NCBI GenBank assembly: GCA_964633995.1
Contig: CAZWKN010000004.1
Location: 1,260 to 65,259 of the forward strand
Length of the DNA: 64,000 nt
DNA from: an uncultured Gammaproteobacteria bacterium
GTDB lineage: Bacteria; Patescibacteriota; Microgenomatia; CAZETR01; Amesbacteraceae
Direction of reading: 5' to 3'
A program made the position numbers and the translations under genes. Under the pieces are notes generated by a model that made no database searches, had not been told where the DNA came from, and was given only the letters and a program-made list of their open reading frames with translations. Position 1 is the first letter of the stretch. The number at the start of each line of letters is the position of its first letter. Of this stretch, positions 3,286-57,792 are shown piece after piece.

Positions 3286-4485
3286 ATGGACACAATTGAA
3301 TTATTTAAATCGGCCACCAGGGCGATAAGAACTAATAAGACCAGATCGTTTTTGACGACGTTGGGAATTATTATTGGTGTGGCGTCGGTAATTTTGTTGG
3401 TATCTATCGGGTCTGGACTGCAAAGTTTTGTGACCAAAGAGTTTGAGTCTTTGGGGTCGAACATATTGTTTATTTCACCCGGTAAGGTAAGTTTTTCCGG
3501 TGGTCCGCCTCAAAACGTAGAAGCCAAATTTGATTTCGAGGACGTAAAAAATATCAGCAATATGGGAGGGCCTATTGTGAAAGCAGCGGGAATGATTGCT
3601 AAGGGATCGACTATCAAATATAAATCTAAGTCGTATTACGGTAACATAGCCGGGACAAACGAATCTTATTTAGAGTATGGGAATGTCAAAATAGAGAGTG
3701 GAAAATTTTTTGGTAAAAACGATGTGGAGAGAAGTGCTCTGGTGGCGGTAATAGGGCACAAAATTTATACTGAGTTATTTGCCTCGGGGGAAAACGCCGT
3801 TGGTAAGCAAATTAGTGTTGTTGGAGCCAAGTTGACAGTGATAGGGGTTTTGCAGGAAAAGGGTGGGGGGTTGGGGGGTGCATCTGATGATAATTCGTAT
3901 GTGGTAATGCCGGTGACGACGGTAAGTAAAATCACCGGGATTAAAAAACCGGCTGCTGTGATGGTAAGGACGCAAACCGCCGATGATACTGGAAGGGCGG
4001 CCAGTATGATCAAGAAATATTTCTATAGAAGAGACTTGACCGATGACGACTTTACGATCATGGAGCCTAAAGAATTGTTGAGTTCGATAAATCAATTTTT
4101 GGGAGTAGTGACTGGGGCGCTGTCGGGAATTGCTGCGATTTCTTTGGTAGTGGGCGGGATTGGGATTGCTAATATTATGTTGGTATCAGTAACCGAAAGA
4201 ACAAGAGAGATTGGACTTCGTAAAGCATTGGGGGCGACTAATGCTGATATTTTGAGACAATTTTTGATTGAATCGGTTTTGTTGTCGGTGTTGGGAGGAG
4301 GGATTGGAATTGGAATTGGATGGGGGTTCTCGTTGCTTCTTAAAAAGTTTATTGAGACGTCTGTGACTTCCCAGTCTGTAATTATGGCGTTTGGTATATC
4401 TGCAATTGTTGGGGTGTTGTCAGGAATTTTACCCGCTTTGCGGGCGTCGAGACTCAATCCAATTGAGGCTTTGAGGTGGGAGTAA
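3286..4485 (+). CDS. ABC transporter permease (FtsX/MacB-like, 4 TM with large periplasmic domain)
   Basis: MacB_PCD-like periplasmic domain and FtsX C-terminal TM bundle (REIGLRKALGA motif). Adjacent to the ATPase. Confidence 0.85.
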   Translation: MDTIELFKSATRAIRTNKTRSFLTTLGIIIGVASVILLVSIGSGLQSFVTKEFESLGSNILFISPGKVSFSGGPPQNVEAKFDFEDVKNISNMGGPIVKAAGMIAKGSTIKYKSKSYYGNIAGTNESYLEYGNVKIESGKFFGKNDVERSALVAVIGHKIYTELFASGENAVGKQISVVGAKLTVIGVLQEKGGGLGGASDDNSYVVMPVTTVSKITGIKKPAAVMVRTQTADDTGRAASMIKKYFYRRDLTDDDFTIMEPKELLSSINQFLGVVTGALSGIAAISLVVGGIGIANIMLVSVTERTREIGLRKALGATNADILRQFLIESVLLSVLGGGIGIGIGWGFSLLLKKFIETSVTSQSVIMAFGISAIVGVLSGILPALRASRLNPIEALRWE

Positions 4486-6354: not shown

Positions 6355-6428
6355 GGGCCCGTAGTTCACCTGGCTAGAACGCGTCATTTGCAATGACGAG
6401 GTAAGCGGTTCGAGTCCGCTCGGGTCCA
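6355..6428 (+). tRNA. tRNA-Ala (anticodon TGC)
   Basis: Acceptor GGGCCCG/CGGGTCC with a G3:U70 pair, anticodon loop tTTGCAa, T-loop TTCGAGT. Confidence 0.9.
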
Positions 6429-7020
6429 CTAAACCTAAAAGTTGGTCCCGACTTCCTCTTGTGGGGAGTCGAGATCAGCTTTGAGGCTGAATCTGGCGAA
6501 ATCCAGATGAGTAGCTCATTGAAAAGTGAAGAGAATTTAATAAGTAGTAGAGTCGTATTTTTTACTTCCGTAATGCAGACAATGGATGCCTAGGATGCTA
6601 GAGCCGAAGAAGGACGTACATAGCCACGAAAGTCGTCGGGGAGCTGCTAAGAAGCTTTGATCCGGCGGTATCCGAATGGGGAAACCCCTCCTATATGGAG
6701 AGTCCGCCGTAAGGCGAGATGGGGCACGTCCCGAACTGAAACATCTAAGTAGGGACAGGAAAAGAAATCACAGAGATTCCGTAAGTAAGCAGCGAGCGAA
6801 AGCGGAACAGCCTAAACCACGCCGCAAGGCGATGGGGTTGCGGGGTCCGCCGCAAGCAATTGATCGAGGATAGGAGAATCCCGTGGAAACGGGAACCAAA
6901 GCAGGTGATAGTCCTTTATCCGAAATCTAAGATCATGCTGGCGGATTCCCAAGTACCATGAGACACACGATCTTGTGGGAATCCGGGGTGACCACACTCC
7001 AAGGCTAAATACTTTAGCAT

Positions 7021-7061
<41 letters not shown>

Positions 7062-7751
7062 GGGTTAAAAACCTAGTGAAATAGAACCTGAAATTGTCTG
7101 CTGGCAAACAGTGAGAGCCCTGTCCCGCAAGGGGTGGGGTGATCGCGTGCCTATTGAAGAATTATCCGGCGAGTTTTCGATTGTTGCGAGTTTAAGCACG
7201 TCAAACGTGTGGAGGCGAAGCGAAAGCGAGTCTTAACAGGGCGCATAGCAGCAGTTGGAAGACCCGAAACCTGGTGAGCTAATCATGAGCAGGGTGAACC
7301 CCGATGAGAATCGGGGGGAGGCCCGAACTCGTTAGAGCTACAAATCTATGAGATGACTTGTGATTAGAGGTAATATGCCAATCGAACCAGGAGATAGCTG
7401 GCTCTCCCCGAAATATATATAGGTATAGCCCTAAAGCCAACTGATATGTGGTAGAGCACTGGATGCTTTCTGCAGCTTCACCGCTGTTGCGAGCAATCAA
7501 ACTCCGAATACGTATCAGAGTGCTTTGGGAGTCAGAACGACCCGGCTAAGCGGGCCGCTCTAAAGGGAAACAACCCAGACTGTCGTCTAAGGCCTCTAAA
7601 TAATGACTTAGTGTTGAACGCAGTTGAATTCCTCAGACAGCCAGGAGGTTGGCTCAGAAGCAGCCATCCTTTAAAGAAAGCGTAACAGCTCACTGGTCGA
7701 TTTGGGAGTTTGGCGCGGAAAATGAACCGAGGCTCAAGTCATTTGCCGAAG

Positions 7752-7848
7752 ACACAGATATTCGTGCTTCGCACAAAATTTATCATTTGTCATTTTACAT
7801 TTGATCATTCAATTGATGAAATGAAAAATGTTTAAATGGTTAATTTCG
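7752..7848 (+). other. AT-rich roughly 95-nt insertion in 23S helix 45 (IVS-like expansion)
   Basis: It replaces the short helix-45 tip (E. coli about 1170) between CCGAAG... and ...GGTAGGGGAGCGTT. At roughly 80% AT it contrasts with the flanking rRNA. Confidence 0.45.
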
Positions 7849-8596
7849 CGCGGAGCGCGGATGTGGTAGGGGAGCGTTGAAAGAGCTGTGAAGCATACGC
7901 CGTAAGGCGGTGTGGAGCGACTTCAAGTGAGAATGCCGGAATGAGTAGCGTTAACTCCGATGAGAATTCGGAGCGCCGAATACCCAAGGTTTCCTCCGCA
8001 ACATTTATTGTCGGAGGGTTAGTCGGCACCTAAGGTGAGGCCATAGTGGGCGTAACCGATGGACGAGCCGTTTAGATTCGGCTACATAAAATATATCGTT
8101 ATGAGCTAGGGACGGACTGAAAAGGAGTATCCAGGCGCATGCAGTGAATGTGGCGTCTAAGCAGTGAGATAGTGAACTTAGGAAAATCCGAGTTTGCGTT
8201 TTAAGTCGAGCTGTTATGGGAAGACTTGCGAGAAATTGTGAGACAACCTGGAGTGCTTCATTTTACGAGAAAATGTTCGTAGCCAGATGTATTTTATGCC
8301 GTACCGCAAACCGACACTGGTGGGTGGGTCGAGTAGACCAAGGCGTTCGGGAGAAGGTAGTTCAAGGAACTCGGCAAAAAAGCTGGACGTAATCTAGAGA
8401 GATGTCCTTCCCGCCTTTGGCGGGACGCAGCAAAAGCTTATTCCTCGACTGTTTAACTAAAACACAGGTCCATGCAAACTCGAAAGAGAAAGTATATGGG
8501 CTGAGGCCTGCCCAGTGCTCGTAAGTTAAGTGGATGGGTGTTAAAGCCCTGAAATGAAGCCCGAGTGAACGGCAGCAGTAACTATAACTGTTCTAT

Positions 8597-8638
<42 letters not shown>

Positions 8639-9148
8639 CGGCTTAACGAGGGAATAACTGTCTTGAACTATCACCCGGCGAAATTGAAATGGCTGTGAAG
8701 ATGCGGCCTAACTCTACTAGGACAAAAAGACCCTATGGAGCTTTACTGTACTCTGGCCCTGTTTCGGATTTTAAAATAGTTTAGTGTAGGAGGGAGCCTT
8801 CGGGCGACAATGAAACACCTCTCGTTTTGGAATCTCGAAACTAACCTATGCCGTCTGGAAACGACGGTGGAGACAAGGTCAGACGGGCAGTTTTACTGGG
8901 GAGGTATCCTGCTAAAGAGTAACGCAGGAGTGCCAAGGTGCTCTAAGCTCGGATGGAAATCGAGCTAGTCGTGTAACGGCATAAGAGCGCTTGACTGCGA
9001 GAGGGACACCTCGAGCAGGTGCGAAAGCAGGTCGTAGTGATCCTCGGATCCCTCGTGGGAGGGACCGGGCTTAACGGATAAAAGCTACCCTAGGGATAAC
9101 AGGCTGATCGCCGCCAAGAGTCCATATCGACGCGGCGGTTTGGCACCT

Positions 9149-9433
9149 TAACCAAATGGTATCGGGGTGTGTTGCCAGTAATGGCATTAGCAAGCTTTGT
9201 TATATGTATAATATTTTTTACTGACTCATATCGGAGAACTCCTTATAAAACGAACAATATAAGGAAAACCCCGAGGGAAGGCCGCCTATGGCGGCCCCCG
9301 TATCGACTTGTGGTTTCAAGACCACGGAGCCGTCTTTTTTAAGACGAGCTAAGACGTCAGCCCCTACTTTGGGTGAATTAACTTAAAGAGGGTGAAGGTA
9401 TAGTCAGCGCTTCGTGTAAACGAAGTCGACACG
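9149..9433 (+). ncRNA. candidate group I intron in 23S rRNA at the E. coli U2500-equivalent site
   Basis: The 285-nt insert exactly splits the conserved GGCACCU|CGAUGUCGG. The 5' exon ends in U and the insert ends in G. An internal guide GGGTG (9164-9168) can pair with exon CACCU with a U.G wobble at the splice site. No ORF is present. Confidence 0.5.
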
Positions 9434-9501
9434 CGATGTCGGCTCATCCTATCCTGGAGGGGCAGTACCTTCCAAGGGTCCGGCTGTTCGCCGGTTAAAA
9501 G

Positions 9502-9550
<49 letters not shown>

Positions 9551-9668
9551 AGTAGAATCGTGGAATTCTTGAGGGGGTCTGACCTCAGTACGAGAGGACC
9601 AGGTTGGAGGTATCACTGGTGTGCCGGTTGTGACGTCAGTTGCAGCGCCGGGTAGCTAAATACCTACG

Positions 9669-9701
<33 letters not shown>

Positions 9702-9902
9702 CTACCCAAGATTAGGAATTCATTCCGTCGCAAGATGGAAAAAGACCCGGGGAAGACTACCCCGTATAAGAGGCAGGCAGTGTAAGCACAGCAATGTGTT
9801 TAGCTTACCTGTACTAATCGGTCTAATGGAGTAAACTTACTAAACCCTATTACTTATTGTTCTCTTCACTTTTCAGTTAGTTACTTGCAAAGAGCGCAGA
9901 GT

Positions 9903-10022
9903 TCTTAGGTCATTTGAGCGGCGTGGAACTACCTTTTTCCATTCCGAACAGAGCCGTAAAACGCGCCAGCGCTGAAAATAGCTAGGGGGCAACTCCTCGT
10001 GAAGATAGGTCATGGCCTAAGA
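9903..10022 (+). rRNA. rrf: 5S ribosomal RNA
   Basis: Helix I is TCTTAGGTCAT/ATGGCCTAAGA and the conserved CCGAAC...GAAGATAGG loop motifs are present. It lies 44 nt after the 23S 3' end. Confidence 0.85.
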
Positions 10023-10977: not shown

Positions 10978-12579
10978 GTGCCGAAGTATGTTTTTGTTGT
11001 TGGTGGAGTAGTATCGGGCCTGGGAAAGGGGATTGTAAGTGCCTCCATAGGAATGCTTTTGAAGTCATGTGGATATAGGGTAAACATGATCAAGATAGAT
11101 CCGTATTTAAACGTAGATGCTGGAACTATGAGGCCTGCTGAGCATGGTGAGACGTTTGTGACTGGTAATGGGGGTGAGATCGATCAAGATTTGGGTAATT
11201 ATGAGAGGTTTTTGAATCAAGATTTCGGACGGGAAAATAATATTACGTCTGGGAAAATATTTAAAACAATTATTGAGCGGGAAAGGGCGATGGGTTATGA
11301 AGGCAGAGACGTAGAAATGATTCCCGATGTTCCAAACGAAGTAAAAAGGAGATTTTACGAGGCAGAAAAAGGCTTTGATTTTGTGATTGTAGAGGTGGGA
11401 GGAACAACGGGGGATATTGAGAACTTGCCGTTTTTGTATGCGGCCAGAGAGATGGGGAGAGAGCGAAAGTCGTTTTATGTAATGGTGGCCTATGTGCCAT
11501 TTTTGAAGAACGTAGGCGAACTTAAAACAAAACCTGCCCAGCATGCGATTTCATTATTAAGATCTACCGGCATAAATCCGGACATGTTGATTACCCGCTC
11601 TGAGGTTGAACTGGATGGACCTAGGAGAGAAACGCTGGCTAAGAGGTGTTTCTTGGATCAGGACATGATTATTGATGACCATGATATGAAATCAATTTAT
11701 AATGTGCCGTTGGAATTGGAAAAACAGGGAATAACAAAAAAAATACTAAAATCGTTTAAACTCACAAAAACTCCAAAGTTAACGGACTGGAAAAAATTTG
11801 TAAGTGGAACAAAGGATTTTAAAAAATCTGTAAAAATAGCGCTAGTTGGAAAATACGTAAAACATGGATCAGGAAATCACAAAGATGTTTATGTGTCAGT
11901 GTTGGAAGCTTTACGACATGCTGGTTCTAAGTTGAATGTGGGTATCGAAGTAGAAGCGATAGATGCAAATGACTTGGATGCCAAGGATTTGGCTGGTAAA
12001 GGATTTAGTGGAATTGTTGTGCCTCAGGGGTGGGGAAGTAGGGGGGTGGAAGGAAAAATCGCGGCGGTGAAGTTTGCTCGCGAGAAAAAGATTCCGTATT
12101 TGGGATTGTGCTTTGGGATGCAGATGGCGGTTGTTGAGTTTGCAAGAAATGTATGTGGGATGAAAGGAGCAAATTCTACGGAAGCAGATGCAAAGACGAA
12201 ATATCCGGTGGTGCACATAATGCCGGAGCAAGAAAAATATTTAAAGGAACATAACTATGGGGGGACGATTAGATTGGGAGCATGGCCGTGCAAAGTAAAA
12301 TTTGGGACGAGGTTAAGAGATATATACGGACAGGATGAAATAAGCGAAAGGCATAGACATAGATATGAGTTTAATAACGAATTTAGAGAAAAGTTGGAGA
12401 AATGCGGTTTAGTGATATCAGGAACAAGTCCGGATGGAAAATTGGTGGAGGCTGTTGAATTGCCCAAAAAAATACATCCATTTTTTGTGGGGACGCAATT
12501 TCATCCGGAGTATAAATCCAGACCGCTGGACCCACACCCGATATTTGTAGGTTTTATAGAAGCAACATTAAAAAAATGA
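10978..12579 (+). CDS. pyrG: CTP synthase
   Basis: N-terminal synthetase motif KYVFVVGGVVSGLGKG and a C-terminal glutaminase domain (GLCFGMQ, HPE). GTG start abuts the upstream stop. Confidence 0.95.
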   Translation: MPKYVFVVGGVVSGLGKGIVSASIGMLLKSCGYRVNMIKIDPYLNVDAGTMRPAEHGETFVTGNGGEIDQDLGNYERFLNQDFGRENNITSGKIFKTIIERERAMGYEGRDVEMIPDVPNEVKRRFYEAEKGFDFVIVEVGGTTGDIENLPFLYAAREMGRERKSFYVMVAYVPFLKNVGELKTKPAQHAISLLRSTGINPDMLITRSEVELDGPRRETLAKRCFLDQDMIIDDHDMKSIYNVPLELEKQGITKKILKSFKLTKTPKLTDWKKFVSGTKDFKKSVKIALVGKYVKHGSGNHKDVYVSVLEALRHAGSKLNVGIEVEAIDANDLDAKDLAGKGFSGIVVPQGWGSRGVEGKIAAVKFAREKKIPYLGLCFGMQMAVVEFARNVCGMKGANSTEADAKTKYPVVHIMPEQEKYLKEHNYGGTIRLGAWPCKVKFGTRLRDIYGQDEISERHRHRYEFNNEFREKLEKCGLVISGTSPDGKLVEAVELPKKIHPFFVGTQFHPEYKSRPLDPHPIFVGFIEATLKK

Positions 12580-13794: not shown

Positions 13795-14766
13795 TTAGTT
13801 TGTAAGTAGATATCCTTCACCCCGCTTGGTTTGGATGAAGGAGCCGGAGATGCCGGAGGCTTCGAGTTTATCACGGAGGCGTTGGATGGATTTGGAAATT
13901 GCATAAAGCGAAAAGTTGTTGGGGTCGGCGAGTTCATCAAAAGTAACGACGTTTGGAGAGCGGGATTTGAGAAGGTCAAAAAGCTTTTTTTCGGCGGAAG
14001 TGAGATTGGAAATTTTATGTTGAGTTGGGGAGATGGGAGGAGCGCCGATTTTTTGGAGGAATTTTTCTGATTGTTGAATTAGGGTGGCCTTTTGTTTGGT
14101 GCGAGTGGCGTTTAGAGTCTGTGAAATTGGGGGAAGCAATTTGGATAGGGGTGAGTAAGTGAGTAGCCAATCGACAATAATTTCTGACTCAGACCAGGTG
14201 CCAGAAAGATTGTCATAAACATCTTTTCGGGTGAGTGAAGTCAAAAGACATTCGACGAGGGCGGAGAGGTTTTGATCCTGGCGTAACCAGATAGTGATGT
14301 TGTGTGGCGGTTTGTTTACGACATTAAACGACCCGCCGGTACCAAAATTGGTGGGCCAGATATTAACGCTTTTGATGGTATTTTTTAGATGAGGAATAAG
14401 ACGGTAAATTTCGGCTCGTATTTTGGCTGAATTTTTTTGCCAGGCAATTTTGAGAAGATCTAAATTTGGAGTGGGGATTTGGGATGATTCGAGTAGTTTT
14501 TGGGTGGAGGTAATCAGATCTTCGGGGACGGTCATTTTTATGCTAGGGGTGGATTTGATATCTATTCTGGAACAATGGTCCCAAAATCTGGGGATAGATA
14601 AATAGGGGAGATTGGGAAGAAGAACGATCTGGTCAGAGATTATTTTTGTGTCGTATGGCAGGACAATAAAGCCATTAAGGCGATAAAAACCGTTGGCGAT
14701 ATTGTGGGCGGTGTGGATAATGCGTAGCGCCTCGGTGCGGGGAGAAAATTGCCAGGTTGTTTTCAT
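13795..14766 (-). CDS. winged-helix (OmpR/PhoB-type trans_reg_C) DNA-binding protein with unknown N-terminal domain
   Basis: C-terminal LTSAEKKLFDLLKSRSPNVVTFDELA...IQRLRDKLE...KRGEGYLL matches the OmpR C-terminal wHTH. No receiver domain. Confidence 0.6.
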   Translation of the reverse strand: MKTTWQFSPRTEALRIIHTAHNIANGFYRLNGFIVLPYDTKIISDQIVLLPNLPYLSIPRFWDHCSRIDIKSTPSIKMTVPEDLITSTQKLLESSQIPTPNLDLLKIAWQKNSAKIRAEIYRLIPHLKNTIKSVNIWPTNFGTGGSFNVVNKPPHNITIWLRQDQNLSALVECLLTSLTRKDVYDNLSGTWSESEIIVDWLLTYSPLSKLLPPISQTLNATRTKQKATLIQQSEKFLQKIGAPPISPTQHKISNLTSAEKKLFDLLKSRSPNVVTFDELADPNNFSLYAISKSIQRLRDKLEASGISGSFIQTKRGEGYLLTN

Positions 14767-17166: not shown

Positions 17167-18444
17167 ATGACAAAAATACGGTCTAGTTATGTGTGTCAGC
17201 AGTGTGGGTATGTCCAGAGCCAGTGGAGTGGTAAGTGTCCCGAGTGTGATACGTGGAATTCGTTAGTAGAAACAGTTGCAGAAATCGCAAATCGCAAATC
17301 GCAAATCGCAAATAAGTCAAAAATATATCAACTATCTGATATAAAAATTGACGAGAAGAAGAGGATAAAGACGGGGATTGAAGAATTGGATAGTGTAATG
17401 GGGGGCGGATTGGTGGCTGGAATGGTGGTGCTGATTGCAGGAGAACCGGGAATTGGAAAAAGTACGTTGTTGACTCAAATAGGAAATGGGTCATTATATG
17501 TTTGCGGCGAAGAAAGTGCGTCTCAGGTGGCTTTGAGAGCGAAACGATTAAGCTTAAAAGGAGAAATGGATTTGTTGGAATCGACTGATGTGGATGAAAT
17601 CGTAAATAAGATGGATGGGGCTAAATTTGTGATAGTGGACTCGGTCCAGACATTAACGACCTCGGATTTGACGGGGACGGCTGGAAGTGTGGGTCAGGTG
17701 AGGGAGTGTGCAGCTAGATTGACTATGGCGGCAAAGAGACTAAATATCCCGCTGTTTATGGTCGGGCATGTAACTAAGGAAGGTAATATTGCAGGGCCCA
17801 TGGTGCTAATGCATGTAGTTGATACCGTATTGTGGTTTGAAGGTGAGCGGGGGCAGACATTGAGACTGATTAGGGCGGTAAAAAATAGATTTGGGCCCAC
17901 AGATGAAGTGGGGGTGTTTGAGATGAAAGAAGCTGGGCTTGTGGGGGTGAGTAATCCATCAGAACTAATGCTTGAAGAGCGGGTAAAAAACGTGCCGGGA
18001 AGTGTTGTGTCTGTAGTGTTGGAAGGCTCACGGCCAATGCTTATAGAAATTCAAGCTTTGGTTGTATCGAGTCAGTTGGCAATTCCCCGACGAGTGGGGA
18101 CTGGGTTGGATATGGCGAGATTGCAAATGTTGATTGCGGTGCTTATGAAAAGGGCCGGCTTGCAACTGGGGAGCGAGGATATTTTTGTGAATGTGACTGG
18201 GGGGATAAGGTTGGCAGATAGGGGAATAGATTTGGCTGTTTGTTTGGCAGTGGCCTCAAGTTTTTTAAACAAGAGTTTGGCTGGGGATATTGCCGCTGTG
18301 GGAGAAGTGGGATTGTTGGGAGAGGTGCGTAAGGTGACGGGATTAGAAAGGCGGGTTAAGGAGGCTAAGAAGTTGGGGTATAGAGTGGCTTCGGCAGAGT
18401 CGGGTAAGAGTGTGTCGGCGGCGATAAAAAAACTCCTAAACTAG
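17167..18444 (+). CDS. radA: DNA repair protein RadA/Sms
   Basis: N-terminal C4 zinc finger CQQCGY...CPEC, Walker A GEPGIGKSTLL, KNRFG motif and a C-terminal Lon-protease-like domain. Confidence 0.95.
   Translation: MTKIRSSYVCQQCGYVQSQWSGKCPECDTWNSLVETVAEIANRKSQIANKSKIYQLSDIKIDEKKRIKTGIEELDSVMGGGLVAGMVVLIAGEPGIGKSTLLTQIGNGSLYVCGEESASQVALRAKRLSLKGEMDLLESTDVDEIVNKMDGAKFVIVDSVQTLTTSDLTGTAGSVGQVRECAARLTMAAKRLNIPLFMVGHVTKEGNIAGPMVLMHVVDTVLWFEGERGQTLRLIRAVKNRFGPTDEVGVFEMKEAGLVGVSNPSELMLEERVKNVPGSVVSVVLEGSRPMLIEIQALVVSSQLAIPRRVGTGLDMARLQMLIAVLMKRAGLQLGSEDIFVNVTGGIRLADRGIDLAVCLAVASSFLNKSLAGDIAAVGEVGLLGEVRKVTGLERRVKEAKKLGYRVASAESGKSVSAAIKKLLN
17274..17312. repeat. degenerate heptanucleotide tandem array (aaatcgc x4-5) inside radA linker
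   Basis: gaaatcgc aaatcgc aaatcgc aaatcgc aaataag encodes EIANRKSQIANKS between the zinc finger and the ATPase. Confidence 0.9.
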
Positions 18445-18457
18445 GTTTTTCCTCAGG

Positions 18458-18574
18458 TTATCCACAGGCGAAAAGTGCAAAGTGTTAAGTGCAAAGTGCT
18501 AATACTAGTTATCCACAATGGGCTGTGTTATGCGGCAAATTAGGTATATTTGTATGCTATAGGTCTGTGGATAA
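18458..18574. promoter_or_regulatory. cluster of three perfect DnaA boxes (TTATCCACA at 18458-18466 and 18509-18517, TGTGGATAA at 18566-18574)
   Basis: Exact 9-mer consensus three times within 117 bp. About 0.5 occurrences are expected by chance in the whole window. The boxes flank the heptamer array 18471-18498. Confidence 0.5.
18471..18498. repeat. heptamer tandem array (aaagtgc aaagtgt taagtgc aaagtgc), intergenic
   Basis: Four 7-nt units. Lies between two DnaA boxes. Confidence 0.85.
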
Positions 18575-19294
18575 ATGGCCCATAGAAAACTATGGGATTG
18601 ATAAAATTGACAGGGGTTGGTATACTCCCGGGTGAGGACCACAAGTAGCAAGAGTTATGCGTAAACTGCTCAGATTATGGTTTCGTAAGAGTGCCGTACG
18701 AAGACGGGGTGTTTTGGGGAGCAATTGGATGAGAGGGCAATTGGCCCAGGCTGTAAAGGTGAATCAAGGAGTTATTTTGATGGGGATGGGGAGGTAGTGA
18801 ATAATACTATGTTTACCGAGGCATCGAGACGATTATTGTTAGACAAGGCCAGGTTCGATCACGCGAGTGGTTGGGTGCTGTGGGGGGCGAGTATGTTGGC
18901 GTTGGTTACAGGAAATAGAGATTTGGGTATTTTATTCCTGGGGTTATCTTTTCCGGTATCGATTGATGCTGCTACTAGTTATTTCTCGGCATTTGTTCAC
19001 AAAAATAGGCATTAAAAAAGAGCATCGCCATCGCTGGATTGAGGACCACGAGTAGCAATGCCCTTTGAGAGATAATCGCCTGGACAGATACGGCGATTTT
19101 CACTTGATAACGGTGATAACATTTAAAGATCACCCTTGTCAAGAAAAAAAAGTCCTTATATTTCGCACCTTTTTAAATTAATTAGCCTCTTTGATGTGTA
19201 CTCAGCATGGAGGACCTGAAAAACGTAGTGGAATTTGATAGTGAGCAGGGCAGGCTGACTATTAGTCCACTTGTCCAGGTCTTCCATGGTGAGT

Positions 19295-20089
19295 ATGAAA
19301 AAATATTGCTTATTGCTTATTGCGTATTGCCTATTTTTTGGAATTGCCACTTCCCCTGCAAGGGCGGCTATTTCGTATGGAGCGGGTTACTACACCAATT
19401 TATGTGATAGTGGGACGTCGGCTAAGTTTTATAACTGTGATCCTGGGTGTAATCCTTCTTTGGGATCGTGTATCGGGAAGAATGAGGGAGTGGTGAAGTG
19501 GGTATGTAGTGGAAAATGGGATCAGTGTTTGGAATCCGAAAGCAACTGGAGTAATGCTGAAAGTTTTAATGGGATGAGTTGTGGTAAGACGGCGCAGATT
19601 TCACTGTTTGATAAAAAATGTCGCCGTGATGATGGCAGTTGGGATCAAACCTGCGTCTTGAAGGGATATATGGTGTGGTACTCGGGGGATTGTAAATCTG
19701 GGATGGTCGTTGATACGCCAAAACCGACGACAACGGTGGTACCGACTGTAAAAATAACACCGACCAAATCCGTATCTCTGGTGCCTTCTGCAACTCTAAC
19801 TCCGACTCCGACTATCATCGTAAAGATTTCCGAGGCGCCCAGCGTGTGTGGCGTGGCCTGTACTCCTTTGGGTGGATGTAAAGCTGGATTGGTGTGCACA
19901 AAAGGGGTTTGTAGAAACCCTGCATGTAATCAGGAGAGTAGCTGCTTTTGCGGAAAGATATTAGGATCTGCTGTTGCGACAAAGCCGCCCGAAACAGGTT
20001 TTAATGTTTGGCAGTGGAGTATCGTGTGGATGGGAATATTTGGTTTGGGATGGTATTTGAAAAAAATGGCTGTTAAAGTTTGGAAGTGA
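19295..20089 (+). CDS. secreted Cys-rich protein with Thr/Pro linker and C-terminal sortase-type sorting signal (KPPETG + hydrophobic segment + KK tail)
   Basis: Signal peptide MKKYCLLLIAYCLFFGIATSPARA with a GGTGA RBS. C-terminus ...ATKPPETGFNVWQWSIVWMGIFGLGWYLKKMAVKVWK. The sortase gene follows with an overlapping start. Confidence 0.6.
   Translation: MKKYCLLLIAYCLFFGIATSPARAAISYGAGYYTNLCDSGTSAKFYNCDPGCNPSLGSCIGKNEGVVKWVCSGKWDQCLESESNWSNAESFNGMSCGKTAQISLFDKKCRRDDGSWDQTCVLKGYMVWYSGDCKSGMVVDTPKPTTTVVPTVKITPTKSVSLVPSATLTPTPTIIVKISEAPSVCGVACTPLGGCKAGLVCTKGVCRNPACNQESSCFCGKILGSAVATKPPETGFNVWQWSIVWMGIFGLGWYLKKMAVKVWK
19304..19338. repeat. heptamer tandem array (tattgct x2, tattgcg, tattgcc, tattttt) encoding the signal-peptide h-region
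   Basis: Same tattgc unit as the intergenic array at 46610-46637. Confidence 0.85.
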
Positions 20090-20733
20090 AGCGGGGATTA
20101 ATTTATAAGAGTGGAGTTTATCGGGAGCCTGTCGGTTTGGCTGGGATAGTCGAGGCCCTAAAAGCTGTTGCCAGGTGGCTGGTGAGGGTGGGTAGGTTTT
20201 TGATGGTATTGGCTGTTGTTGGAGCGGTTTATATATATTTACCGTTGGGAATAGCTTGGATAAATTACTCCAACCATAAAGTGACGAAAGAGTTGGTGGT
20301 GGAAGATAATAATTATGCCGTTTTTGTGCCGAAAATTGGTGCTTTGGCGGCGGTTATTCCAAATGTGGACGCTAATAGTAAAGAGGCTTATGGGCTGGCT
20401 TTAAGGGCGGGGGTGGCGGAAGCTGCTGGAATGGCTCATCCAGGTGAGATGGGGACTACTTTGTTATTTGCTCATTCGGTGGGAGATAGGATAGATTTTG
20501 CAAGGTATAACGCAGTTTTTTACTTGTTAGACAAGCTGGGTTTAGGGGATACGGTGGAGATTGTTTATAAGGGTAAATTATTGCGATATGAGGTTGTCCG
20601 GAGAGAAATATTGGAACCAGAAAATAATGCCTATTTTAAGCCTCAAAAATTGTCTGAACAACTGGTTTTACAGACGTGTTGGCCACCAGGGACGACGTGG
20701 AAGAGATTGGTAGTTGTAGGGAGGAGAATTTAG
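20080..20733 (+). CDS. sortase (cysteine transpeptidase), membrane-anchored
   Basis: N-terminal TM. Catalytic His region LLFAHS, TLxTC-type motif LVLQTCWP, and a conserved C-terminal Arg in RLVVVGRR. Confidence 0.75.
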   Translation: MEVKRGLIYKSGVYREPVGLAGIVEALKAVARWLVRVGRFLMVLAVVGAVYIYLPLGIAWINYSNHKVTKELVVEDNNYAVFVPKIGALAAVIPNVDANSKEAYGLALRAGVAEAAGMAHPGEMGTTLLFAHSVGDRIDFARYNAVFYLLDKLGLGDTVEIVYKGKLLRYEVVRREILEPENNAYFKPQKLSEQLVLQTCWPPGTTWKRLVVVGRRI

Positions 20734-20809: not shown

Positions 20810-22153
20810 ATGTCTGACAACAATGATGGTGTAATAAATGTTCCGCCCGGACCGGTTTCTGATGGGCAGGATGTAGCAATGGCTTCTCCGGGTGTAAGGT
20901 CTATGATGAGACCTGGTGTGGTCCGAGTTATAGGTAGGGTAGTTCCACGCCCAGCCCCCAGTTTCAATGGCCAGAATCAACAGGCGCGTCCGATAGTTAG
21001 GGCGCCTATTTATCAACAGGAAGAAAGAGTGATTCCCGATTCTGGTTGGCCCACTGAATACGTAGAGGGATTTTTGGATATTACCCCTGATGGGCATGGT
21101 TATTTAAGGCCCAAGATGGTACCCTCTTCTAAGGATGTTTATATTTCTTCTTCTCAGGTAAGAAGGTTTAATTTACGCCCCGGAGATTTGGTGGGTGGCC
21201 AGGCAAGGGAGCCCAAAGAAAATGAAAGATATTGGGGGCTTTTGAAAGTCGAAAAAGTAAATTCTGGGACACCAGAACAGGCGGCAACCAGGCCAGAATT
21301 TGACAACATGACGGCTGTTTTTCCGGAGGAACAGTTGGTTTTGGAGACCGATCCCGAAATAATGTCGACGAGGATCATCGATTTGGTGGCCCCGATCGGA
21401 AAGGGTCAAAGAGGACTTATTGTGGCCCAACCTAAGGCTGGGAAGACATGGTTACTTAGGGACATTGCTCAGTCGCTGACCAAAAATTATCCGGATATGC
21501 ATTTGATGGCGGTGCTTATAGGGGAAAGGCCTGAGGAAGTAACGGAGATTATCAGATCACTAAAGGGAGAAGTGGCTGCGTCGCATTTCGATGAGCCTCC
21601 CTTGGAACAAGTTAGAATTGCCGAATTGGCTTTGGAGCGGGCCAAAAGATTGGTAGAGATGGGTAAGGATGTGTTTATCCTGTTGGACTCGATTACACGA
21701 CTGGCCAGGGCATATAACATGATTACTTCTGGGTCGGGTAGGATGATGTCTGGAGGATTTTCGGCAGAAGCTATTTATCCCGCCAAAAAAGCTTTTGGGG
21801 CAGCAAGAAAATTTGAAGAGGGTGGAAGCTTGACTATTTTGGGTACATGTTTGGTGGATACTGGTTCCCGACAGGACGACTTGGTTTATGAGGAATTTAA
21901 AGGAACCGGAAATATGGAGTTGCATTTGGACAGAAGACTGGCTGATAGGCGAGTGTTTCCGGCATATGATATCTTGAAAAGTGGAACCAGAGGTGAAGAA
22001 AAATTGTTGGGCAAGAGATACGAGAAGGTAATTCAACTTCGGAGAATGTTGGACTTACTAAACGAGGATGAACGGACAGAATTGTTGATTGCGAAAATGA
22101 AAAAGACTAAGAATAACGACGACTTTTTGGAAAGCTTGACGAAGGCTGGTTAA
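20810..22153 (+). CDS. rho: transcription termination factor Rho (with N-terminal low-complexity extension)
   Basis: CSD-like RNA-binding domain (RFNLRPGDLVGG) and an ATPase domain with Walker A GKGQRGLIVAQPKAGKT and Q/R loops. Confidence 0.95.
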   Translation: MSDNNDGVINVPPGPVSDGQDVAMASPGVRSMMRPGVVRVIGRVVPRPAPSFNGQNQQARPIVRAPIYQQEERVIPDSGWPTEYVEGFLDITPDGHGYLRPKMVPSSKDVYISSSQVRRFNLRPGDLVGGQAREPKENERYWGLLKVEKVNSGTPEQAATRPEFDNMTAVFPEEQLVLETDPEIMSTRIIDLVAPIGKGQRGLIVAQPKAGKTWLLRDIAQSLTKNYPDMHLMAVLIGERPEEVTEIIRSLKGEVAASHFDEPPLEQVRIAELALERAKRLVEMGKDVFILLDSITRLARAYNMITSGSGRMMSGGFSAEAIYPAKKAFGAARKFEEGGSLTILGTCLVDTGSRQDDLVYEEFKGTGNMELHLDRRLADRRVFPAYDILKSGTRGEEKLLGKRYEKVIQLRRMLDLLNEDERTELLIAKMKKTKNNDDFLESLTKAG

Positions 22154-35800: not shown

Positions 35801-35926
35801 TGTCCTATAGTATACCAATATTTGGGGTTTTCGTCAAGTTTGGTGGACCATGGGGGAATCAGCTGCGGCCTGCACAGCAGCCCCGTATCCGCAATTTACC
35901 TACTATCTAATCTAGTGCGAATGTTG

Positions 35927-35997
35927 TGGACCCAGCCGGAATCGGACCGGCGACTGGTCGATGCGAACGACCTGGTATACCACTTGCCTATGGGCCC
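35927..35997 (-). tRNA. tRNA-Ala-like (anticodon CGC), possibly degenerate
   Basis: Reverse complement gggcccataggcaagtggtataccaggtcgttcgcatcgaccagtcgccggtccgattccggctgggtcca. G3:U70 pair and anticodon loop tTCGCAt. However, the T-loop is TCCGATT (C55) and the D-stem has a C.A mismatch. Confidence 0.5.
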
Positions 35998-46526: not shown

Positions 46527-46609
46527 GTAAATTATTGTGGATAGACTGTGTACAACTACATCATTTGAAGCTAAAATATTGATTACTTATTGTGGACAAA
46601 GTACAGGAC

Positions 46610-46637
46610 TTATTGCTTATTACGTATTGCGTATATA
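46610..46637. repeat. heptamer array (ttattgc ttattac gtattgc gtatata), intergenic
   Basis: Four units in the GT4-to-TagA spacer, which also carries a roughly 20-bp direct repeat catttga(a/g)gctaaaat (46560/46672). Confidence 0.8.
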
Positions 46638-46692
46638 CTTATAGTATTATGACCAATATTTGTCTGTTTATGACATTTGAGGCTAAAATGAT

Positions 46693-55974: not shown

Positions 55975-56725
55975 CCTTTAAGGACAGTTCTTTCAAAGAT
56001 CGAGGGTGAGAGATGATATTTGGGAGAGGGAGGGTTCGTCGATTTGCGAGTTTTCGACAAAACTAGAGTAGGAATTGAATCCTGATTTGGCAAAATAAGA
56101 TAAAATTGCTTGTGGTTTGAGCCAATCTTGTTTGATAAAGCCGAGATAGTTTCGATAAGATGATGGTTGGGGACACTCTTGTAAGGACTGTCCTTTTTGG
56201 AAAGGATTGAGGTGAATATAGCGAGATAGGTGGAGCAGTTGTTGTTCTGAATCTACAAGGACCGCCTTGTAAGCATCCTGAAAAAGTGGTCCTACTCTGT
56301 GGTTGTTTCTATGGTTAAAATACTGGACGTAGCGGGTGCAAAGAGAGCGCATAAACATTTCTATAGTTCTGGGAACGGTTTGTTTGACTAAAAGATGGAA
56401 ATGATTGGGCATTAGGCAATAGGCTAGTAAATCGAGTTGATTGGAAAAATTGTTGAGTCGAATTAGTTTTTTGGCATCTGCCTTTTGATAGGGAGTAGAT
56501 GTGGGGTTGGTTAATACCTGAAGGAGTTTGTCTAAGTCTTTGGGGGAAAGATATTCTTTGAGATATGAGAGGAAAACGGACTCATCCTGTTTGTCTGAAA
56601 AAATTGCTCGCTTTTCGACACCGCGGTTGTAGATGTGGTAGTAGCCGTTTTCGTGATACTCTTTGATCTTGTTCTTGGCGGGCACAAATTTAGGATACTC
56701 TTGAAAGGACTGTCCTTTCAAGAGT
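55975..56725 (-). mobile_element. putative IS200/IS605-like element (HUH transposase gene bounded by palindromic hairpins)
   Basis: GAAAGGACTGTCCTTTC perfect palindrome at 56703-56719, just upstream of the gene. A related palindrome lies at 56183-56196 and a degenerate copy (AAGGACAGTTCTTT) at 55981-55994, just past the stop. Overall size about 750 bp. Confidence 0.45.
55993..56685 (-). CDS. IS200-like HUH (Y1) transposase-family protein, paralog B
   Basis: YYHIYNRGV, HUH as PNHFHLL, YKAV, and IHLNP. Start proposed at GTG 56683-56685, equivalent to MPAK of paralog A. The annotated 368-aa ORF has a 140-aa low-complexity N-terminus overlapping the neighbouring gene. Confidence 0.6.
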   Translation of the reverse strand: MPAKNKIKEYHENGYYHIYNRGVEKRAIFSDKQDESVFLSYLKEYLSPKDLDKLLQVLTNPTSTPYQKADAKKLIRLNNFSNQLDLLAYCLMPNHFHLLVKQTVPRTIEMFMRSLCTRYVQYFNHRNNHRVGPLFQDAYKAVLVDSEQQLLHLSRYIHLNPFQKGQSLQECPQPSSYRNYLGFIKQDWLKPQAILSYFAKSGFNSYSSFVENSQIDEPSLSQISSLTLDL

Positions 56726-56742
56726 TGGAATTGTGATAGAAT

Positions 56743-57792
56743 TTGGGGATGGCGAGTGATTTGGGGCAGAAGGCAAAGAAAACGTTGGAAGCGTTTGTGC
56801 CGGAGATAGATAAGCGAATTGCTGAGTATTTTGACGAAGAAATAAAAAAAGATTTCGGGTTTAATGAGAAACAGAAAAAGTTGGATAGGGAGATTTTGGA
56901 ACACGCAAAAGAATACATTCTGCGTCCGACGAAGAGAATCAGAAGTTCGTTTGTGCGTTATGGAGCAAGGTTGGGTGGAGAAGAATGTGATTGGGGTGCT
57001 GCTGTGGGGGTGGAGTTGGTACATGCAGGGCTTTTGATGCATGACGATTTTATGGATAACGATAGTTTTAGGCGGGGAGGGTTGACAACCCATGAACATT
57101 TTAAAAAAGTAATGAATGATTCACACCTGGGGGATGCTATGGCGGTTACGGTGGGAGATGCAATGTTGTTTATGGGCTTAGAGCTTATTTCTAATAGCGA
57201 CAACAGACCGGCAATGAAACAGATGTTGAGAGGGTTGGCAAATACTGGTTATGGCCAGGCTTACGATGTTGGTTTGGAAGCACTTAAGGAATGGACAGAA
57301 GACGATGTGATCGTTTTGCACAAGGCAAAGACGGCGATTTATACGTATGAGAATCCGTTGTTTATTGGGGCGCATTTGGCCGGTTTATCAAAAGAGGTTT
57401 TTGAAATTTTGCATGAATATTCTATGGATGGTGGGGTGGCATTTCAGTTGCAAGATGATATTTTGGGAGTGTATGGGAGTCCAGAGAAGACGGGAAAGAG
57501 TGCAGATTCGGATCTAAAACAGGGAAAATGTACCCTGATGGTGCTTAAGGCGTGGGATTGTCCAGAAGTGCATAAAGTTTGGGGTGATCAAAATGCAACG
57601 AGAGAGGATCTGGATGCGGCTAAAAAAGCCATATTGGACTGCGGGGCGTATGAATATAATAAAAAATTGGCCAGAGAGTATGCGGCAAAAGCGGCTAGGA
57701 CGGCAGAGAAATTGCGTAAATTTGAGTTAAATTCAGAAGCGATTGATTTCATCCAGGGTATTGCTGAGTATATGGTGGAGAGAGAAGTATAA
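56743..57792 (+). CDS. trans-polyprenyl diphosphate synthase (FPP/GGPP synthase family)
   Basis: First Asp-rich motif LLMHDDFMDNDSFRRG and second motif LQDDILG. Confidence 0.85.
   Translation: MGMASDLGQKAKKTLEAFVPEIDKRIAEYFDEEIKKDFGFNEKQKKLDREILEHAKEYILRPTKRIRSSFVRYGARLGGEECDWGAAVGVELVHAGLLMHDDFMDNDSFRRGGLTTHEHFKKVMNDSHLGDAMAVTVGDAMLFMGLELISNSDNRPAMKQMLRGLANTGYGQAYDVGLEALKEWTEDDVIVLHKAKTAIYTYENPLFIGAHLAGLSKEVFEILHEYSMDGGVAFQLQDDILGVYGSPEKTGKSADSDLKQGKCTLMVLKAWDCPEVHKVWGDQNATREDLDAAKKAILDCGAYEYNKKLAREYAAKAARTAEKLRKFELNSEAIDFIQGIAEYMVEREV

Follow-up and report, generated by a model that had tools for sequence, protein, structure and literature searches.

DnaA is well known in model bacteria as a transcription factor, and the degeneracy accepted for its binding sites is of the TTWTNCACA type. 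To our knowledge, nothing has been described on the DnaA regulon, or on any regulatory RNA, of the Candidate Phyla Radiation, whose members cannot be grown alone, and our literature searches found DnaA boxes in these bacteria mentioned in a single paper. Parts of the locus considered here have counterparts in several described systems. In mok/hok, a small hydrophobic peptide is translationally coupled to an upstream frame. RNA-OUT (with its partner RNA-IN) and Sok are stem-loop antisense RNAs complementary to the 5' end or ribosome-binding region of a messenger RNA (mRNA), and the tisAB promoter of the tisAB/istR-1 pair carries LexA. Expression of the small protein Sda of Bacillus subtilis requires five DnaA boxes upstream of the sda promoter, and sda is crossed by an antisense transcript (PMC2533591). 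DnaA-box clusters (DBCs) of the same organism are classed as stable when at least four successive boxes, with at most one mismatch to TTATNCACA, occur at high local density (PMC2533591, Table 2).

We analyzed a window of 64,000 nucleotides (nt), the whole stretch of DNA under study, from contig CAZWKN010000004.1 of a member of the Amesbacteraceae (Patescibacteriota, Microgenomatia). Three perfect DnaA boxes lie in the spacer downstream of radA. They precede a predicted promoter, P1, which heads a cassette of small open reading frames (ORFs) and a convergent antisense small RNA (sRNA). An earlier interpretation made from the letters alone (the sequence-only reading) had offered three explanations of the boxes: a replication origin or part of one, a DnaA-titration site, or a DnaA-regulated promoter. 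On balance, comparison with related loci leads us to read the three 9-mers as probable DnaA operator sites of P1, not as an origin.

DnaA boxes upstream of promoter P1

Exact matching of TTATCCACA recovered the three boxes of the sequence-only reading, within 117 bp and with the same positions and strands (Table 1); box 1 and box 3 are the arms of a perfect inverted repeat of 10 bp. Its estimate that less than one copy per window should arise by chance also held. Dinucleotide-preserving shuffles give 0.86 copies of TTATCCACA per 64 kb, and therefore about 1e-6 triples within 117 nt. The three-box cluster is real and non-random. P1 starts 24 nt past box 3, matches a sigma-70-type consensus at 10 of 12 positions, and contains a second hexamer, TTGACA, from which the box distances in Table 1 are counted.

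The sequence-only reading had made its case depend on conservation in related genomes, and the boxes are conserved there. Across 33 loci, 16 perfect boxes fall in the 350 nt after radA (11.5 kb in total), against 10 in 431 kb elsewhere. P1 was placed in relatives by a regular expression anchored on CTATRGG...TTGAC, and the predicted promoter is kept in all cassette loci. All 29 genome loci with P1 placed have a plus-strand box with at most one mismatch, perfect in 18, at clade-specific distances from the -35 hexamer of -85, -95, -106/-108, -115, or -149. Perfect boxes in genome loci are on the plus strand in 20 cases and on the minus strand in one, box 3 of the window. An independent sample of 80 metagenome loci was retrieved with the sRNA-terminator pattern alone. 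P1 is recognizable in 67 of them, of which 57 have a box with at most one mismatch and 37 a perfect one. All 38 perfect metagenome boxes are on the plus strand and occupy the same distance classes, so that the two samples together contain 58 perfect boxes on the plus strand and one on the minus strand. When the 210-nt upstream zones were grouped into 65 clusters at no more than 85% identity, a box was present in 54.

The positions of the window's own boxes are also shared. Boxes 1 and 2, at -148 and -97, represent two recurrent distance classes (-149 and about -95). Daviesbacteria-type loci, as well as metagenome loci L108, L143, and L144, have a box at -148/-149. L108, a close relative, has the same -148/-97 pair. 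Box 3 is the least conserved of the three, with one-mismatch equivalents in L007, L025, and L144. The distance classes differ by roughly whole helical turns, an observation made post hoc. The box is linked to the cassette: in those loci, Daviesbacteria-type and others, where a gene intervenes between radA and the cassette, it lies upstream of P1 and not beside radA.

Two further elements accompany the boxes. Tandem Repeats Finder confirmed the heptamer array that had been reported as bracketed by boxes, and places its AAAGTGC units between boxes 1 and 2. In relatives, an array of 7-bp period built from other units (TTTGAAG, TTGAAAA, TTAAAAA, TTTTCAA, or TAATGTT) takes the same place, and the array differs even between the window and L108. 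Between the DnaA box and P1, nearly all cassette loci carry a pair of (C)CTATRGG motifs about 35-45 nt apart, with a core that is palindromic (CCTATAGG) in many of them.

The presence of this second, unexplained conserved motif in the same region leaves some room for the view that the 9-mer is read by a factor other than DnaA and resembles a DnaA box by coincidence, the more so as the DNA-binding proteins of the lineage are without experimental characterization. We consider this quite improbable. What is conserved matches the high-affinity DnaA box in all 9 bp, and its variants (TTTTCCACA, ATATCCACA, and CTATCCACA) change at positions 1-3 and keep the TCCACA core, which resembles the degeneracy accepted for DnaA boxes (compare TTATNCACA; PMC2533591).

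Box density and arrangement bear on the proposal that the site titrates DnaA or controls its activity, as datA, DARS, or the B. subtilis clusters do, and so buffers the initiator without controlling P1. The boxes are perfect high-affinity sites in intergenic DNA outside the origin. The B. subtilis clusters are likewise intergenic, and some also regulate neighboring genes (PMC2533591; PMC3245932). Titration is compatible with simultaneous promoter control. However, only three sites with at most one mismatch to TTATNCACA occur in 200 nt, with 42-48 bp between them, and most relatives have one or two, which would make a poor sink; the definition of a stable DBC does not extend to this site. Stable B. 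subtilis sites have 4-8 boxes within about 45-95 bp (PMC2533591). A sink would also require neither the strict orientation nor the discrete distances to P1, and we regard titration in place of promoter control as unlikely.

DnaA bound at the boxes could instead act as a roadblock or insulator against read-through from the upstream operon, which is radA or, in Daviesbacteria-type loci, a yacL-like gene. Such roadblocks have been discussed for B. subtilis (PMC2533591). The single orientation suits an orientation-dependent block, and in many loci, with TAGTTATCCACA as an example, the first box lies 4-23 nt from the upstream stop codon. Between radA and P1 there is no intrinsic terminator, the only terminator-like site found being inside radA. 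What is conserved, however, is the distance to P1, whereas the distance to the upstream stop codon ranges from -17 to +178 nt, and L104 keeps its box despite an opposite-strand ORF inserted between radA and the cassette. We give this explanation little probability.

The start of P1 24 nt after box 3, the fixed orientation of the boxes, and their discrete distances in relatives thus lend comparative support to the DnaA-regulated promoter among the three explanations first offered. Several points weigh against the operator reading. With 120-180 nt between it and the predicted start downstream, the conserved box is far away for an effect by simple occlusion, and the only box near the promoter, box 3 at -40, is also the least conserved. 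No box with at most one mismatch occurs in ten of the 67 metagenome loci, and the locus counts ignore shared ancestry. The fixed spacing between box and P1 could partly reflect a block that is seldom hit by indels. The distances themselves depend on how P1 was placed: in the window's clade, the TTGACA of the anchor lies just 8 nt from the -10 hexamer, so the true -35 there is probably TTGATA, 9 nt further upstream. Finally, the window does not encode the organism's own DnaA.

Other boxes and box-like sequences were also noted. A fourth perfect box in the window (14712-14720, minus strand), within the 5' end of a minus-strand ORF for a Trans_reg_C winged-helix protein (13795-14766), is about what chance predicts for one window. 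The intergenic region 46527-46692 holds three reverse near-consensus boxes: TGTGGATAG at 46536, TGTGTACAA at 46547, and TGTGGACAA at 46591. In the Daviesbacteria-type locus L024, two adjacent reverse boxes (TGTGGACAAtctTGTGGATAA; 11390-11410) directly follow radA, and further boxes lie upstream of the cassette, 2.6 kb beyond this pair. In L104, an Amesbacteria-type metagenome contig, the inserted opposite-strand ORF (3470-3900) lies between radA and the box, has inverted repeats on its flanks (..cctcaccc..ctctcctaccttaggagaggg..), and may represent a small mobile element.

The CTATAGG form of the paired motif might be an element of promoters in general; it occurs 7 times in the window against 4.4 expected, once after a -10 hexamer at 35804. 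We also considered it as a mark of T7-like promoters and rejected this second idea because the upstream specificity region is not conserved. The copy at 35804-35840 (minus strand) belongs to a promoter-like TTGACG-17-TATACT that is followed directly by ATAGG, a short leader, and a small ORF with a hydrophobic-looking translation, between two transfer RNA (tRNA)-Ala genes; another CTATAGG overlaps the 5' end of the tRNA-Ala at 35996.

Small proteins and an antisense RNA downstream of P1

The roughly 700 bp after the boxes had been described as free of convincing ORFs. This does not stand: the spacer contains a conserved ORF of 46 amino acids (aa), ORF1, a 68-aa ORF2, a minus-strand sRNA gene, and a long hairpin (Table 1). 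Seemingly empty spacers of compact genomes can thus hold small genes and RNAs that gene callers overlook.

ORF1 encodes a basic protein of 42-55 aa across loci. In the last 22 codons of ten orthologues, differences number 547 at third codon positions against 336 at first and 247 at second positions, and 40% of the differing codons are synonymous in frame compared with 8-9% in the other two frames. By this comparison ORF1 has a clear protein-coding substitution signature. A profile search of 5.8 billion proteins returned just 25 homologues, all hypothetical, and the few with an organism label are from Microgenomates/Patescibacteria. ORF1 has no significant Pfam match and no sequence relation to Sda. 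An AlphaFold2 model based on 24 homologues is a single long helix, uninformative at a predicted local distance difference test (pLDDT) score of 65.

The ribosome-binding site of ORF2 overlaps the ORF1 stop codon. ORF2 also has no significant Pfam match, and close relatives have unrelated yet equally hydrophobic ORFs in its place (two in L004), with Kyte-Doolittle values of 1.8-3.05 over 15 aa for ORF2 and these positional equivalents. ORF2 is absent from Gottesmanbacteria- and Daviesbacteria-type loci. The sRNA occurs with ORF1 and without ORF2 in L016, L018, L027, L030, and Daviesbacteria-type loci, and without either ORF in L021, L028, and L036. In L004, two hydrophobic-ORF cassettes lie in tandem (11560-12160); upstream of each is one copy of the 3' end of ORF1 together with the ribosome-binding site (..GTTATTTCGATGAGTG.GGG.AGGT..), and downstream of each is AAAAAAGAGCATCGCCAT. 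This arrangement suggests duplication by unequal recombination, and L007 has an orphan copy of the L004-type ORF1-end junction.

The sRNA folds with a free energy (dG) of -37.5 kcal/mol (z -4.45). A covariance model built from 11 sequences matches 31 loci, always on the strand opposite to radA. In the alignment of these 31 sequences, 95.1% of cells are paired, and double changes affect 14 of 27 pairs in 100 cells, against 11-27 cells in slid controls. Frequent G-U pairs are consistent with the minus strand only. The comparative record of covariation and G-U pairs establishes both the structure and the strand of the sRNA. A search of Rfam 15 with both strands of the spacer, at the gathering threshold and at permissive E-values, found no family for the sRNA or the downstream hairpin, and only chance-level matches at E-values up to 10 (window) and 5 (L021, L022). 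The predicted sRNA promoter P2 has TTGACA and the TGnTA of its -10 region invariant in 10 Amesbacteria-type loci, and the form TTGACA-17/18-TAnnnN with TG is conserved, canonical spacing being held in distant loci.

The predicted P1 leader, TGAGGACCACAAGTAGCAA, recurs on the same strand at 19040-19058 and nowhere else in 64 kb (0.06 copies expected; repeat score 33 against a shuffle maximum of 23.5). In the sRNA gene, this second copy gives rise to the loop and 5' arm of the terminator hairpin. It follows that the sRNA and the leader are complementary, as far as a point 6 nt ahead of the ORF1 start codon. Between clades, the two copies change jointly (GAGGACC, GAGGATC, or GAGGGYC). In other lineages both roles fall to a different sequence: in Gottesmanbacteria-type loci to GTTAGTCTTGGGA, at the 5' end of the mRNA; in L015 to AGCGGGCTACGACTACGA; and in Daviesbacteria-type loci to GCAGACGGAC, in a hairpin loop after ORF1. 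Complementarity was scored without gaps, and the match in L001-L004, seen by eye, escaped the scoring because of indels there. These comparisons support sRNA:mRNA pairing at the leader; a repeated same-strand protein-binding motif would leave an identical DNA pattern.

The very stable plus-strand hairpin downstream covers with its 3' arm the sequence GGUGAG, the likely ribosome-binding site of the next gene, and abuts the AUG of that gene. Its GGGCAGG apical loop is conserved, with covarying stems, in most clades. The UCUGUCC loop of the sRNA (19080-19092) could pair with this loop through 7 bp, two of them G-U, and the loops (YCUGYYY and GGGCAGG) are complementary in Amesbacteria- and Daviesbacteria-type loci. 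Kissing between the two is not supported as a general rule, because some clades have only one partner.

Taking these parts together, we propose the following scheme, in which the binding of DnaA, the direction of its control, the ends of the transcripts, and the action of the sRNA are inferred. DnaA would occupy the boxes at fixed, roughly helically phased distances upstream of P1 and, with a factor at the two CTATRGG motifs, would raise or lower P1 firing, so that output of the cassette would track the level of the replication initiator or its nucleotide state. The P1 transcript, with a predicted start near 18633, would encode ORF1 and the translationally coupled ORF2 and would continue antisense through the sRNA gene towards the downstream hairpin. 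The convergent sRNA from P2 would pair with the 19-nt leader and thereby block translation or trigger decay.

Chromosomal setting and the origin question

Pfam confirmed radA upstream of the boxes, as the sequence-only reading had proposed, and RadA has relatives at 67-77% identity in metagenome-assembled genomes of Candidatus Amesbacteria; we class the organism as Amesbacteria-type within the Microgenomates. Besides radA, sortase, and rho, the 40 window ORFs scanned against Pfam include a HlyD/MacB pair, CTP synthase, an S1 protein, mur genes, comEC, and several aminoacyl-tRNA synthetases.

The origin explanation, whole or as half of a split origin, can draw on several features. Three perfect boxes in 117 bp form a DnaA-box cluster, as an oriC would have; between the boxes are a repeat array and a stretch mildly rich in A+T; some relatives have very A+T-rich 7-bp arrays beside the box; and ribosomal RNA (rRNA) genes, typical of origin-proximal DNA, are close by. 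GC skew points the other way. The skew of the window is unusually strong, at +0.3 to +0.45, falling to about +0.09 only past 59 kb. It stays positive over the minus-strand mur gene block (23.5-31.6 kb) and so reflects replication and not transcription. It is +0.38 over the 8 kb to the left of radA and +0.32 over the 8 kb to the right, and the cumulative curve climbs monotonically through all 64 kb. The site therefore has neither a sign change nor the minimum for which the sequence-only reading had advised looking, and at the orthologous site of the 11 relatives with enough flanking DNA the skew is likewise positive on both sides.

Gene content and local structure agree with the skew. The Pfam scan of the 40 ORFs found no dnaA or dnaN domain, and so neither gene adjacent to the site, and a six-frame search of the window and the first 80 loci for the motifs GxGKTHL and RDHTTV found no dnaA-like ORF. 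Most relatives have a single box. The stretch between boxes 2 and 3, previously called AT-rich, has about 60% A+T by our count, as does the DNA flanking the boxes, against about 56% for the window, and is thus not like a DNA unwinding element (DUE). In the basal unwinding system, a box is followed by a spacer of at most 16 bp, at least three DnaA-trios, and then an A+T-rich DUE (PMC8287927). No box with such a spacer and a DnaA-trio array occurs at the site, only chance-like runs of 3-4 NAN/NTN units, a loose pattern that discriminates little. The sole TAG-type run of the site is 32 nt from box 1 and on what we take, from the layout in B. subtilis, to be the wrong side of box 2. With no skew switch, no dnaA or dnaN in the window, and no trio module, the site is very improbable indeed as an origin or part of one. 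However striking, a cluster of DnaA boxes needs support from skew before it is called an origin.

The operator reading places the boxes in a cassette with a constant address. In the sequences compared, it is located downstream of radA and, where sequence suffices, upstream of rho across Microgenomates. In the metagenome sample, radA is upstream on the same strand in 40 loci and rho is downstream in 20; 29 loci carry at least 3 kb of downstream sequence. In L021, L036, L088, and L104, rho directly follows the cassette, with the GGGCAGG hairpin just before the rho promoter. In the window, a gene for a predicted secreted Cys-rich protein and a sortase gene are interposed. The Cys-rich protein is a likely substrate of the sortase, judging by its translation. 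Its start codon was placed by a signal-peptide-like N-terminus, and it has no Pfam match. The 19-mer ATTGCTTATTACGTATTGC, at 46612 in the intergenic region 46527-46692, recurs with 0-1 mismatches at 19305 and 19312 (0.04 expected), within the signal-peptide codons of the Cys-rich gene. A scan of viral contigs with the sRNA pattern gave 0 matches and thus no sign of phage origin.

The rRNA operon is split in the window. tRNA-Ile (521-593) lies about 5.8 kb from tRNA-Ala, 23S, and 5S (6355-10021), with genes for HlyD, MacB/FtsX, and a TrmB-like protein in between and no 16S gene in the window. The 23S match spans 3279 nt against a model of 2925 nt and therefore carries insertions. LAGLIDADG ORFs occur several kilobases upstream of radA in relatives L081 and L085, and a minus-strand ORF at 55993-57099 has an IS200-like (Y1_Tnp) transposase domain.

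Table 1. Features from radA to rho, with positions in the window.
Feature	Position	Strand	Details
radA (425 aa)	17167-18444	+	Pfam: Zn_ribbon_LapB, KaiC-type ATPase/AAA_25, ChlI
DnaA box 1 (TTATCCACA)	18458-18466	+	exact match; 148 nt upstream of TTGACA hexamer at 18607
7-bp-period array	18472-18502		4 x AAAGTGC at 18472-18499, or 2 x 14-mer; Tandem Repeats Finder
DnaA box 2 (TTATCCACA)	18509-18517	+	exact match; -97 relative to TTGACA at 18607
CTATAGG motif, distal copy	18557-18563	+	
DnaA box 3 (TTATCCACA)	18566-18574	-	exact match; -40 relative to TTGACA at 18607
CTATGGG motif, proximal copy	18590-18596	+	abuts -35 region
Promoter P1 (predicted)	18598-18626	+	TTGATA-17-TATACT, TG before -10 (extended -10)
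P1 5' leader (predicted)	18633-18651	+	19 nt, TGAGGACCACAAGTAGCAA
ORF1	18657-18797	+	46-aa basic protein, C-terminus ..MRGQL..NQGVIxMxxGR
ORF2	18809-19015	+	68-aa hydrophobic peptide
sRNA, about 95 nt	19012-19108	-	5' hairpin (loop UCUGUCC), then long terminator hairpin and U6
Promoter P2 of sRNA (predicted)	19113-19142	-	TTGACA-17/18-TATCAC, TG before -10, T-tract upstream
Hairpin	19198-19296	+	apical loop AGGGCAG; dG -55.1 kcal/mol, z -9.1
Cys-rich secreted protein (predicted)	19295-20089	+	C-terminal PETG motif and membrane anchor, by translation
Sortase	20080-20733	+	Pfam
rho	20810-22153	+	Pfam

Comparison with described regulatory systems

As defined by sequence, the locus would be a compact circuit of operator, promoter, small protein, and antisense sRNA, conserved throughout the superphylum at a fixed chromosomal address. 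One speculative extension, which we hold to be rather doubtful, is that the cassette is a lineage-wide replication-status switch in which DnaA occupancy of phased boxes gates a sense/antisense RNA pair and the basic protein is a cell-cycle or stress effector. If true, the switch would be a functional counterpart, in reduced-genome bacteria, of Sda or of SOS-type small inhibitors; we know of no checkpoint described for reduced-genome bacteria of this kind. The cassette may also tie initiator status to Rho expression, given its place downstream of radA, upstream of rho, and in several loci directly before rho.

The high-affinity intergenic boxes outside oriC, conserved among relatives, are a feature that the locus would share with the DBCs of B. 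subtilis and with datA and DARS of Escherichia coli. Unlike in those systems, the boxes here are fewer and sparser, and they keep a fixed orientation and fixed distances to a promoter.

A small hydrophobic peptide (ORF2) and an antisense RNA with 19 nt of complementarity to the leader, both present here, are features of type I toxin-antitoxin systems. The overlap of the ORF2 ribosome-binding site with the ORF1 stop codon recalls the coupling in mok/hok, the complementarity of a stem-loop RNA to the mRNA 5' end recalls RNA-OUT and Sok, and DnaA, as proposed at P1, would be the counterpart of LexA at tisAB. In contrast to type I systems, the conserved parts here are the basic ORF1 and the sRNA, whereas ORF2 is variable and missing from whole clades; because the hydrophobic ORF is the dispensable part, we do not file the cassette as a toxin-antitoxin system. 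Unlike in hok/sok, tisAB/istR-1, and IS10, the sRNA is encoded about 400 nt downstream and is convergent. Its complementarity to the leader comes from the duplicated 19-mer, and its complementarity to the 3' part of the P1 transcript comes from overlap.

Sda is about as long as the 46-aa ORF1, and the sda locus is the nearest in layout: there, too, the promoter for a very small protein has several DnaA boxes upstream, and antisense transcription crosses the locus. The two differ in that the most conserved box here is single and about 95-150 nt from the -35 hexamer, that the antisense RNA is discrete and structured with its own conserved promoter, and that Microgenomates, unlike the host of sda, do not sporulate. 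What the cassette would have in common with sda, by analogy and as proposed here, is a small effector coupled to the status of the replication initiator.

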